Below, one piece after another: positions 58,703 through 62,229 of a DNA stretch of 64,000 nucleotides; the first letter of the stretch is position 1; each line of letters starts with the position of its first letter. The notes under the pieces were generated by a model. That model made no database searches. It was given only the letters and a program-made list of their open reading frames with translations, and was not told where the DNA came from. The DNA comes from an uncultured Methanosarcinaceae archaeon. Lineage in GTDB: Archaea; Halobacteriota; Methanosarcinia; Methanosarcinales; Methanosarcinaceae. The DNA is taken from assembly GCA_963721455.1 (NCBI GenBank), contig CAVRJG010000053.1, positions 32,001-96,000 of the forward strand, written 5' to 3'. The position numbers were made by a program, and so were the translations under genes.

Positions 58703-61394
58703 TTACTTTTTCAAATCTTTCAATGCCTCAAGATTTCTCTCACAAAAATTAATTATCCTCGGATATTCTATTTCCTTTCCAATAGATAACGCCTGCTCAT
58801 AATACTCAATCGCTTTTTTGGATTCGCCAAGATCACCGTATGCTTTCCCTAAATTTTTAAGGCAATTTCCTTCTCCGCGCCTGTCCCCTATTTCTTGAGC
58901 AATTTTCAGTGCCTGTTCAAAATATTCAATTGCTTTCTTGGCTTCGCTCAGATGACTGTATGCGTTCCCCAGATTTCCAAGCCAATTTCCTTCTCCGCGC
59001 CTGTCCCCAATTTCTTGAGCAATTTTCAGTGCCTGTTCATAATATTCAATTGCTTTTCTTGGCTTCGCCCAGATGACTGTATGCTTCTCCAAGATTCCCA
59101 AGCTATGTCCTTCTCCGAGCCTGTCCCCGATTTCTTGAGCAATTTTCAGTGCCTGTTCATAATATTCAATTGCTTTCTTGGCTTCGCCCAGATGACTGTA
59201 TGCGCTCCCAGATTTCCAAGCCTATTTCCTTCTCCGAGCCTGTCCCCTATTTCTTGGGCAATTTTCAGTGCCTGCTCATAATATTCAATTGCTTTTCTCG
59301 GCTCGCTCAGATGAAAGTATGCGTTCCCCAGATTCCCAAGGTGATGTTCCTTCTGTGAGCCTGTCCCCTATTTCTTGAGCAATTTTCAGTGCCTGTTCGA
59401 AATATTCAATTGCTTTTTCGGGTTCGCTCAGATGAAAGTATGCGTTCCCCATATTTCCAAGCCAAGTTCCTTCTCTGTGCCTGTCCCCGATTTCTTCAGC
59501 AATTTTCAGTGCCTGTTCAAAATATTCAATTGCTTTTCTCAGCTTCGCTCAGATGAAAGTATGTGTCCCCTATATTTCCAAGCCAAGTTCCTTCTCTGCG
59601 TCTGTCCCCTATTTCTTGTAGCAATTTCCAGTGCCTGTTCATAATATTCAATTGCTTTTCTGGGTTCGCCCAGATGAATGTATGCGTTCCCCATATTTCC
59701 AAGGCTAGAGTTCTCCTTCTCTGCAGCCGGTCCCCTATTTCTTGAGCAATTTTCAGTGCCTGTTCAAATATTCAATTGCTTTTCTCTGGTTCGCCTCAGA
59801 TTGAACGGTATGATTCCCCTATATTTCCAAGCCAAGTCCCTTCTCTGCATCTGTCCCCTATTTCTTGTACCAATTTTCAGTGCTTGTTCATAATATTCAA
59901 TTGCTTTTCTGGGTTCGCCCAGATTAAAGTATGCGTTCCCCAGGTTTCCAATAATAAAACCATTATTCTCAACATCTTTCAAAATAATTTTAGTCGAAAA
60001 ATGGTCTTTGGGTAATATTTTTACATAGAGGTCAATAAGTGCTGTATAATTGCCCCAAAGATCAAGGCGTTCATCCAGATTGTTGGCAAATATGATATTA
60101 AAAGCCTCGTCATATTCTTTGGCCATGCAGGCATGGTGATGGGCTTCTATTAAAGACTGAACGTCTTCTTTTTTTGTAGGTTTGGCTGGCAGGGGAAAGG
60201 AAAGGTAGTATTTGCAGGCAAGTTTGTGGCGCTCGGATTCTTCAGATAATCGGGTTGCGGCATACTTGCTTATTAACGATTCTTCCCAGTAATTTTCACC
60301 GTTTTTTTGTAAAAGAGATTTACGAATTAATTTCAATGCAATTTTATTTACCCTCGATTCAGTCCATTTTGGATCATTAGCTATTTTTGTGATTGCTCTT
60401 GCAGGCACTGGCTGCCTGAAAACGGATACATATTGAAGAAGCTTACATTCATCATCGGAGAGCCTGTCGTTGTAGACTTTACCAAGAATATTTTCTGCTA
60501 CTTCCCCTTCTTCTCCAATCCAGATTGAATCATCGTTTAGGAGAGCTGAAAGAGTATCTTCTCCAGACCTTACAAGTTGAGCTAGAAGGAGGAGGGCAAG
60601 AGGATGACCACCAGACTTATCTACAGCTCTTTTTAAGCATTCACCCGAGTCATTTAAACCCTCTCTCCTTAATAACAGAATTCCAGATGATGTGTCAAGT
60701 CCCTTAATTTGGTAAAAAAATGGTCTGATTCCTCTCTCACTTGAGATAGATTCCCAGCTGGTAAACAGAATTTTACTTCTGATACTGTTTTCATTTGCTT
60801 TTTCTATTAGTTCAGAAAAGCCGATTTTTGACTCTAAAGGTTTGTTTGTTTTAGGATTAAGGAGAATTTCAAAATTATCGAGAACTAAAAGATATGGAAA
60901 TTTGTTTAATTCGTGAAACATAAGGTTTATTTGATCTGCAATTTTGTAGCTTTCGAGGTCTTTAATCGGTTTGCCAATAACAGTAAAAAAACTATCTATA
61001 ATTTCACTAATATCCGTTGCTTCTTCAACTTTACGCCAGTATATTCCAGTAAATTTTCCAATTTCTTATACTTCTGTCAACGTACATACTTGCCAGAGTA
61101 GATTTGCCTTTTCCGCAAAAACCAGTGATGACAAGAGCGCTCCTGTTTTTTAAATAAGTTTTCTATGTATTCAAGCTCTTCTTCTCTTCCAAATATTCTA
61201 TTAGGATCGGTAGCAGGTTTGGCACCCTGTGTATAAATCCATGAATGTTCATTTTTAGTTGAGCCTTCAGGTGATATCATGACAGTTTTAATCTGTGTTA
61301 TGTTTTCACCGATAGCGCTTTGACCGGAGATATTTCCCTGTGTAAAATTTCCACGCACGGTTATTATTGGAACAGAAGGATCATCTGCTTTCAT
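58703..61394 (-). pseudogene. STAND/NB-ARC ATPase with TPR repeats (NLR-like), interrupted by several frameshifts (real decay or assembly errors)
   Basis: IFGREEEL; after a frameshift at ~61150, Walker A ALVITGFCGKGKSTLA; second shift at ~61065; Walker B LLVLDNFE; GGHPLAL; then ~10 TPRs (KAIEY.EQALKIAQEIGDRRGEG..LGNLG). Confidence 0.85.
58770..59950 (-). repeat. array of ~120-bp (40-aa TPR) repeats, about 10 copies
   Basis: AATA(T/C)TCAAT(T/C)GC anchor recurs near 58801, 58922, 59041, 59161, 59280, 59402, 59522, 59643, 59768 and 59893. Confidence 0.9.
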
Positions 61395-61438
61395 GTGAAA
61401 AAACCTCTAATCAAGCGAATCTTCTAATAAAGCCGTAA

Positions 61439-61849
61439 TCAGAGCGCTATACCGAGTAAACCAGCTACTATCTTGACCGAACCACATATTTCGGATATGT
61501 TTTTCACGGTTTTTCCGGCATCTTTAAGAGTTTCAATAACACTTTCGACTCTTGTCTTGATCTTTTGCAATTTTGGCTCTTCTTTTCCGGTTTCTATGAG
61601 GGCGGCATTTACATCGCCTTTGATGGTCTCTTTATCTTCGGAAGAAAGATCTATTTTGACTAGTTCTTCCTGAAAATCAAGGAGGCTTTTCTTGAGTTTT
61701 TCAATGTCAACAGTGGATGAAGATTGGATTTGGGATATATTTTTTCCAATTGCAAACTGCCCGCTGACATCACCTATGTGTACATCTCCACCGGCATTTA
61801 TTCCGTAGCCTTTATCCTCCATGTTCTTAGAATCATTTTCTTCGGACAT
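61439..61849 (-). CDS. small protein with an N-terminal G/N/Q/I-rich motif and a helical C-terminal domain; putative partner of the NLR-like ATPase
   Basis: 136 aa, GAGG SD; motif INAGGDVHIGDVSGQFAIGKNISQIQ matches the N-terminus of the downstream ATPase; 44-bp gap, same strand. Confidence 0.8.
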   Translation of the reverse strand: MSEENDSKNMEDKGYGINAGGDVHIGDVSGQFAIGKNISQIQSSSTVDIEKLKKSLLDFQEELVKIDLSSEDKETIKGDVNAALIETGKEEPKLQKIKTRVESVIETLKDAGKTVKNISEICGSVKIVAGLLGIAL

Positions 61850-62229
61850 TCAAAACCTCTCTCAAATTTGAATTATGTCTGCCATCACAAGTTGTGATAT
61901 TTTTTATGGACCATTATATTAAATAGTGTAGAAATAAGAACGTCCTTGATATAGAGATTTCGAATTAGTTTCAAAGTAGACGTAATAGTACCTGACCCTC
62001 GATTTTTATCGTAGTTTCATAATTATAATCTCCAAAAAACTCAGAATCATTTCGGAAATTACGGACTCTCCGCCTGCTTCGCAGGCGTATGGTTGCCCTG
62101 TTTTCAAAAAGTATCAAACAATTAAAAACTGGCTCCGTACTCCAAAATTTTAGAAAACTATACCTACCGGTACTCGATCTTTCAAAAATCTATTCAAAAA
62201 AGCGACCCCGAAAAATAAGTTTACCGCCC

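Follow-up and report, generated by a model that had tools for sequence, protein, structure and literature searches.

Why should an NLR-like ATPase and the small protein encoded next to it begin with the same short peptide? This question is raised by two adjacent genes on the reverse strand of a 64,000-nucleotide stretch of DNA (referred to as the window) from contig CAVRJG010000053.1 of an uncultured Methanosarcinaceae archaeon, in which an earlier note, made from the sequence letters, had seen a candidate amyloid-signaling pair. In the following, the small gene is called the effector gene, and its neighbor, which encodes an NB-ARC-TPR ATPase of the STAND type, the sensor gene. The motif was found to be common to both genes, specific to such pairs and co-varying with the motif of the neighbor across lineages. 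The reading that we favor, at somewhat better than even probability, is an NLR-effector module for cell death or defense that is coupled by a prion-like adaptor motif. The pair in the window consists of the following elements, identified from open reading frames (ORFs), a hidden Markov model (HMM) of the motif, and comparison with an ortholog in the congeneric genome G116:

61439..61849, minus strand: intact effector gene of 136 aa (ORF), with an N-terminal motif, a helical bundle and a C-terminal hydrophobic helix
61724..61804, minus strand: effector-side motif GINAGGDVHIGDVSGQFAIGKNISQIQ, residues 16-42 of the 136-aa protein
61395..61438, minus strand: spacer of 44 bp from the effector stop codon to the STAND start codon (ORF bounds)
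61287..61367, minus strand: sensor-side motif, residues 10-36 of the first ORF fragment (motif HMM, E 4e-12)
58703..61394, minus strand: NB-ARC-TPR STAND gene, an apparent pseudogene here (tblastn with the G116 ortholog; three-frame reading)

The coordinates and sequences that the earlier note gave for both genes were reproduced, as was its ungapped match of 13/26 residues, which is the best 26-mer between the two N-termini. When the two 60-aa N-termini were shuffled 2000 times with their composition preserved, the maximum was 10 identities, and 13 was never reached. The codons differ at 10 of the 13 identical residues (10/11 in the 11-residue core), and the nucleotide identity across the motif pair is 43/78. 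The likeness is therefore best attributed to selection on the peptide and not to a recent DNA duplication, as had been argued before. The composition of the motif in the 56 closest rows of alignment A2 was 21% G, 8% N, 11% Q and 25% V+I, with K+R+L+P below 2% and a depletion of charged residues, and one glycine (G35 of the window effector) was kept in 100 of 101 family rows. The motif is thus G/N/Q-rich, and it is unstructured in the model of the soluble monomer; its beta propensity was judged from the alternating hydrophobic pattern alone. The K/E charge complementarity suggested earlier did not hold up, as it occurs in only 2/8 pairs, with E/E in 3/8. A complex prediction with two sensor and two effector N-termini scored 0.26 against a mark of 0.32, which has no bearing either way.

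To define the range of the motif in the genome, we used the motif HMM (29 positions, built from eight pairs including both pairs of the window genome) against all 44,564 six-frame ORFs of at least 40 aa. Four matches with E <= 6e-11 were obtained, two in the window pair and two in a further pair on contig C54. The search is circular for these four, all of which are in the model, and its informative part is that nothing else was found: no fifth motif ORF was detected in the genome by this HMM, the next-best E being 0.41.

The two genes were next compared with those of relatives, where they form, with strong support from the sequence comparisons, a recurrent syntenic unit with a co-conserved motif. 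Two HMMs, one for the motif and one for the helical part of the effector, were run on every ORF of the fetched loci, and cyanobacterial loci were reached with a single cyanobacterial protein (P0198) as the query. All 23 distinct ORFs with both motif and helical part had a second, motif-only ORF in the locus, and 15 of the 23 lie outside the eight pairs that built the motif model. The motif-bearing partner was directly downstream and co-directional in 21/23 cases, directly upstream in one (L057) and 2.5 kb away in one (L058), and the gap from the effector stop to the STAND start was 12-44 bp across the eight pairs. Of 27 partner N-termini examined, 26 had the motif in their first ~45 residues; in the exception (L069), a longer N-terminal extension comes before it. 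On the effector side, the motif was N-terminal in 22/22 stand-alone small proteins and stood directly ahead of the helical domain in fusions. Five genes of the system were seen in a row at L055 (G235:C213:1-10231), in the order effector, sensor, sensor (with a 'NAP' variant of the motif), effector and sensor.

A search with the single window protein gave a match in 8 of 151 genomes of the family (4/16 genera), and a 101-sequence profile gave a match in 36 of 392 Methanosarcinia genomes (13/49 genera). In protein collections, the effector family comprised 287 clusters at E <= 1e-3 and 184 matches among 1.84 billion representatives. The source names included Methanosarcina, Methanolobus and an ANME-2 archaeon, and also the cyanobacterium Phormidesmis; the named members are all annotated as 'hypothetical'.

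The partners of these effectors are mostly NLR-like, as the earlier note had proposed for the window gene. An NB-ARC, nSTAND or AAA domain together with TPR was found in 3/5 partners of one set and 9/10 of another. The exceptions were one 336-aa TPR protein and two TPR proteins of ~905 aa that lack an NTPase; the latter two come from G028 and G136, are encoded at L021 4281-7010 and L023 4474-7191 and have a conserved 260-aa C-terminal region. NB-ARC and TPR occupy one open frame in the ortholog of the window sensor (L018 in G116; NB-ARC E 1.9e-10) and in its paralog on contig C54 (L008). In the intact G116 ortholog, NB-ARC begins at residue 74, in agreement with the claim that the ATPase has no other N-terminal effector domain. 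In this family, a short motif recurs at the N-terminus of an NLR-like NTPase and in the protein encoded next to it.

Further evidence on the role of the motif came from more remote relatives of the helical domain, which carry other N-terminal motifs, each matching the N-terminus of the neighboring NTPase. The best 16-mer identities with the neighbor were 14/16 in G318, 11/16 in G372, 10/16 in Phormidesmis and 13/16 in Coleofasciculus, each of them reached in 0/500 shuffles, and two weak remote pairs gave 8/16 (4/500 shuffles) and 7/16 (40/500). Both the Phormidesmis and the Coleofasciculus pair are cyanobacterial; the former is divergently transcribed, and the partner in the latter is a NACHT protein. 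In four genomes (G046, G184, G186 and G192), the helical domain is fused C-terminally to a Roc-COR NTPase, with E values of 1e-26 to 1e-35 for the helical HMM and no motif-HMM match in these proteins. Such a loss of the motif would be predicted for a pure adaptor. Proteins of the ROCO class (LRR-Roc-COR or Roc-COR) that end in the helical domain and have no recognizable motif were seen in four Methanosarcinia genomes, at loci L024, L040, L041 and L042.

These data also bear on the explanation that the motif is a targeting or regulatory tag (for localization, a protease or a chaperone), which each protein would need independently and without mutual contact. Both proteins do bear the motif at the extreme N-terminus, and pair-specific covariation is weak within the main motif type, as a tag of this kind would allow. 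However, neighbors match even though the motif differs between lineages, which would be unexpected if one cellular receptor recognized the tag; effectors fused to a Roc-COR NTPase have lost the motif; and, genome-wide, the motif is confined to the two pairs. We therefore give the tag only a very small chance.

The second pair in the same genome is intact and lies on contig C54 (locus L008 4740-8749; G000:C54:66739-70748). Its effector is a 142-aa paralog with 44% identity to the window effector and is encoded 20 bp upstream of an open 1157-aa NB-ARC-TPR gene. The motif is present at both N-termini, which agree at 16/26 positions of the common alignment. Upstream of the pair is an AbiTii-domain gene (L008 8959-9870; E 1.8e-41), and downstream are genes for an IS240-type DDE transposase and IstB_IS21 (L008 3119-4666).

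The small effector was then examined in its own right. Its C-terminal part was divided as follows:

61442..61714, minus strand: helical effector domain, residues 46-136 (AlphaFold2)
61442..61489, minus strand: C-terminal hydrophobic segment, residues 121-136 (hydropathy)

In the AlphaFold2 model, for which the 101-row family alignment was used, residues 1-45, including the motif, had a predicted local distance difference test (pLDDT) score below 50 and are predicted to be disordered. Residues 46-136 were modeled as a helical bundle with helices at 49-63, 70-87, 94-110, 115-121 and 123-132, and the block means of pLDDT were 76-92 from residue 51. The hydrophobic helix is the last of these, by hydropathy as well as in the model: residues 121-135 form the top Kyte-Doolittle 15-residue window of the protein (1.98), and the median hydropathy of the last 18 residues over 101 family members was +1.04. 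The proposed inversion of the Bell/HeLo layout was thus confirmed for the effector, with the motif N-terminal and the hydrophobic helix C-terminal. No PDB match of the helical fold was found by Foldseek at E <= 0.001, and none of significance by a profile search of PDB sequences. No family in Pfam or NCBIfam matched the effector; the leads below the Pfam cut-off in the family were DUF5955 (7/101 members, best E 4e-5), DUF4404, TCAD2 and Goodbye. The ratio of nonsynonymous to synonymous substitution (dN/dS) against the G116 ortholog was 0.21 for the effector as a whole and for its helical part, and 0.076 for the motif. The effector gene is intact and constrained, and its motif is under strong purifying selection.

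The sensor gene of the window is in a different state. It has 73% DNA identity to the intact 875-aa NB-ARC-TPR gene of G116, and a tblastn alignment with this ortholog passes through frames 3, 1 and 2. Walker A and the TPR units lie in different frames, so that no single open frame covers NB-ARC and TPR in the window:

61097..61123, minus strand: Walker A, GFCGKGKST, in a frame that differs from that of the N-terminus (three-frame translation, frame-0 segment 61162-61034)
58703..59950, minus strand: array of 40-aa TPR units with at least nine frame changes (tblastn of one intact unit)

Two frame changes were located in the NTPase part, near 61152-61162 and near 61046-61065. In the array, a tblastn search with the intact unit gave the frame order 2,3,3,1,2,3,3,1,1,2,1,3,1,1,1, and the last ORF of the array matched Pfam TPR_12 with E 1e-30. 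Rather than a single frameshift, the gene has at least 11 frame changes in 2.7 kb and appears to be a pseudogene. The earlier view of the window genes as a working pair could not be upheld, because the sensor is a pseudogene.

Assembly or sequencing errors might produce the same picture, in which case the STAND gene would be intact in the organism and the window pair functional. The genome is a 73-contig draft, the first frame change sits at an A6 run, near-identical 120-bp TPR units are hard to assemble, and further STAND genes of the same assembly are also split. On the other side, the at least 11 changes fall within 2.7 kb, yet the flanking genes are fully open and matched in relatives, and two of the changes fall in unique NTPase sequence. 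The flanking genes that are open over their full length are, besides the small effector gene, those for SnoaL and YdjM and two ORFs that we take to be SOD-like and GyrA-like. On balance, we hold it to be quite unlikely that errors account for the frame changes. Elsewhere in the genome, two more NB-ARC-TPR genes are split into successive ORFs in different frames (C56:23416-25989 and C58:2006-4588), and an NB-ARC-WD40 gene at C44:127273-131239 may be split too. The split NLR-type genes may reflect either general decay in the strain or assembly trouble in such genes.

As its own sensor has decayed while the effector remains intact, the window effector may be either an orphan or served in trans by the intact sensor on contig C54. 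The motif of the window effector shares 15/26 residues with that of the C54 sensor, versus 13/26 with that of its decayed cognate.

The module occupies a variable slot, as comparison with a related genome shows. The segment 58692-62388 of the window has no counterpart in G023 (locus L077), where gyrA and the gene of a YdjM-family membrane protein are separated by 2.6 kb of unrelated DNA. A pair of this family adjoins the SOD gene instead in G028. A TATA-like A/T-rich box, tttaatataa when read in the direction of the gene, was seen by eye at 61914-61923, ~65 nt before the effector ATG, and a ribosome-binding sequence of the GAGG type, also seen by eye, precedes both genes. Twelve public sequencing runs were listed, each with at most 0.10 of the sampled words, and contigs of 151-264 nt from four runs gave no useful cover where the frame changes lie. 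A metatranscriptome library yielded a 254-nt contig over 61281-61534, which takes in the 3' end of the effector gene, the spacer and the 5' end of the sensor gene; this hints at co-transcription in a relative, though weakly at best.

How might such a pair work? In the reading that we favor, the order of elements is motif, NB-ARC and TPR in the sensor, and motif, helical bundle and hydrophobic C-terminal helix in the effector. Binding of a ligand by the TPR array would lead to oligomerization of NB-ARC. The disordered motifs at the sensor N-termini would thereby be brought together and fold into an amyloid-like nucleus rich in beta structure. This nucleus would template the motif of the same type at the effector N-terminus, whereupon the effector would polymerize; polymerization, in turn, would free the C-terminal hydrophobic helix from the bundle, and the effector would attack the membrane. 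By analogy with known systems and from the properties of the motif, an amyloid mechanism of the gene pair is plausible, and templating, fibril formation and membrane action are the steps that we infer from it. STAND/NLR-effector modules serve regulated cell death or antiviral defense in multicellular prokaryotes and fungi. The position of the C54 pair beside AbiTii and insertion sequence elements, the variable slot, and a match to the candidate defense model PDC-M14B (described below) were counted for this reading.

The comparative evidence speaks for coupling of the two proteins and not for its physical form, and the motif might instead be a non-amyloid docking element. The N-termini would then pair by beta-strand augmentation into a defined stoichiometric complex. 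In this role, the motif would resemble, at a far smaller size, the effector-associated (Death-like) adaptor domains known from conflict systems of prokaryotes, and the effector would join the sensor oligomer without templated polymerization. Adaptor domains common to NTPases and neighboring effectors are known (PMC7159879; PMC8195603; here and below, published work is taken as described in the available part of each text), and the motif is kept beside the helical domain in fusion proteins. Against docking, a ~27-residue, G/N/Q-rich, low-complexity and disordered motif is typical of amyloid signaling motifs and unlike folded adaptors, and the validated systems of the same gene layout use amyloid (10.1101/2024.11.07.622273). 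Docking is, in our judgment, unlikely, though still worth reckoning with.

Several further points weigh against a prion-like coupling of sensor and effector. Pfam contains RHIM, HET-s, Ses_B and NACHT_sigma models. In a scan of both N-termini at E <= 1, no amyloid-motif family of Pfam was matched by either, and the relation to RHIM/BASS put forward in the earlier note gained no support from it. Within the main motif type, cognate pairs had a mean of 14.25 identities versus 12.75 for non-cognate pairs, and 552 of 20,000 permutations reached the observed sum. The pair-specific covariation is weak there, and, because cognate pairs are only slightly more alike, the motif behaves as a family-wide tag and not as a private code. 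The motif is also kept in fusions to non-NTPase domains (HEAT, DUF4429-like) and, for that reason, could be a structural part of the effector. At least three motif-bearing STAND genes (L062, L063 and L064) had no helical-domain gene in the flanks fetched; the architectures of the STAND genes without such a neighbor were TIR-motif-NB-ARC-TPR, motif-NB-ARC-TPR and motif-CHAT-STAND-TPR. The hydrophobic tail of ~13-16 residues is short for a membrane span, and a pore-forming role of the helical fold would be by analogy, given that the fold has no significant PDB match. Finally, the window copy cannot signal in cis, as its sensor is broken.

The standing of the family relative to published work was considered next. 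Bell domains and NLR architectures have been noted in Methanosarcinales, with two archaeal pairs reported (10.1101/2020.01.06.895854), and an NLR-side peptide of Methanothrix aggregates in an amyloid-like manner (PMC8086366). Archaeal NLR-associated amyloid motifs are thus already in print, and the present family is not a first. The usual sites of such motifs are NLR N-termini and effector C-termini (PMC12261475), and an N-terminal effector-side motif of the present kind was not found described in the literature searched on amyloid signaling, NLRs and archaea. The published screen, as described, compared Bell C-termini with NLR N-termini (10.1101/2020.01.06.895854) and would for this reason miss pairs of the present family. 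With a probability that we place a little short of even, the helical proteins represent a previously undescribed family of NLR-coupled cell-death effectors in Methanosarcinia (including ANME-2-labeled records) and cyanobacteria, which would mirror the Bell/HeLo layout and pair with four or more unrelated motif types.

If this is true, amyloid-templated immune signaling would have arisen at least twice with different effector folds, and effectors and sensors of the same motif type could form a trans-acting network in one cell, the orphan effector included. To the two Bell/NLR pairs and one peptide assay that are all that is in print for archaea in the texts available, the family would add a second, differently built effector of reversed topology, and a phyletic range of 36/392 Methanosarcinia genomes plus cyanobacteria. 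It would also add several motif types, each matched between neighbors, which would amount to a natural experiment on the features of signaling amyloids. The pairs would offer a testable case of regulated cell death or antiviral defense in a genetically tractable archaeal genus, and screens confined to effector C-termini would be seen to overlook part of such biology.

One of the closest known systems is the candidate defense system PDC-M14. The PADLOC model PDC-M14B (PADLOC-DB 2.0.0) matched the window effector with E 5.7e-9 and a cyanobacterial homolog with E 4e-10. Profile positions ~149-265 of 267 match the motif and helical domain, whereas the N-terminal 150 positions are absent from the present effector; the window protein covers only positions 149-256 of 267. 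Four partner proteins (L008, L018, L021 and L023) had no PDC-M14 model among their PADLOC matches, and the term 'PDC-M14' was not found in the literature searched.

In the fungal HET-S/NWD2 system, the N-terminal motif of the NLR templates the motif of a neighboring helical effector that targets membranes. The signaling logic is the same as that proposed here, whereas the motif families, the effector fold and the topology differ, and no sequence relation was found by Pfam scan.

Another of these systems is Bab/Agp, an antiphage Abi system of E. coli in which amyloid signaling was shown by experiment (10.1101/2024.11.07.622273). Like the present module, it has two genes: the sensor bears an amyloid motif (BASS11) at its N-terminus and switches on a small helical protein that has the same motif and causes cell death. 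BASS11 also occurs with TIR, CHAT, NACHT and NB-ARC proteins (10.1101/2024.11.07.622273), a range of partners that is seen in the present family as well, the motifs being compared by description. Bab differs in having an N-terminal hydrophobic helix and a C-terminal motif. Agp resembles the ~905-aa TPR partners without NTPase of G028 and G136, which may be archaeal relatives of TPR-GreA/B-C-PIN (Agp-like) proteins. Their C-terminal 260 aa gave no Pfam match at E <= 0.01 (best 0.012) and no PIN or GreA family up to E <= 1. A precomputed entry for these partners is PF11848, which we take to be a PIN-like family. The AlphaFold2 model of the C-terminal 270 aa of the G028 partner had a pLDDT of 41.7 and was unusable, and tblastn of this partner against phage and plasmid records gave matches at the level of TPR only.

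A further comparison is that with the Bell/BASS-NLR pairs, in which Bell proteins with a C-terminal motif are paired with NLRs that bear the same motif N-terminally (Dyrka 2020; 10.1101/2020.01.06.895854). As far as these pairs are described, both systems consist of adjacent, mostly co-directional genes a few bp apart, and in both a ~25-residue G/N/Q-rich motif is common to the N-terminus of an NB-ARC/NACHT-TPR protein and a ~130-aa helical protein. Each has a single effector domain family that goes with several motif families, includes all-in-one fusions without the motif and is found in multicellular lineages. Bell and Babybell proteins begin with a hydrophobic helix, around which ~four helices form a cup, and are acidic at position 2-3 (10.1101/2020.01.06.895854; 10.1101/2024.11.07.622273). 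Compared by this published description, the window effector is arranged otherwise: its N-terminus is polar and disordered, its motif lies at residues 16-42 of 136 in place of the C-terminal site of the ASM/BASS type, and its hydrophobic helix comes last (121-136). The present effector thus carries its motif at the N-terminus and its hydrophobic helix at the C-terminus, and Bell the reverse.

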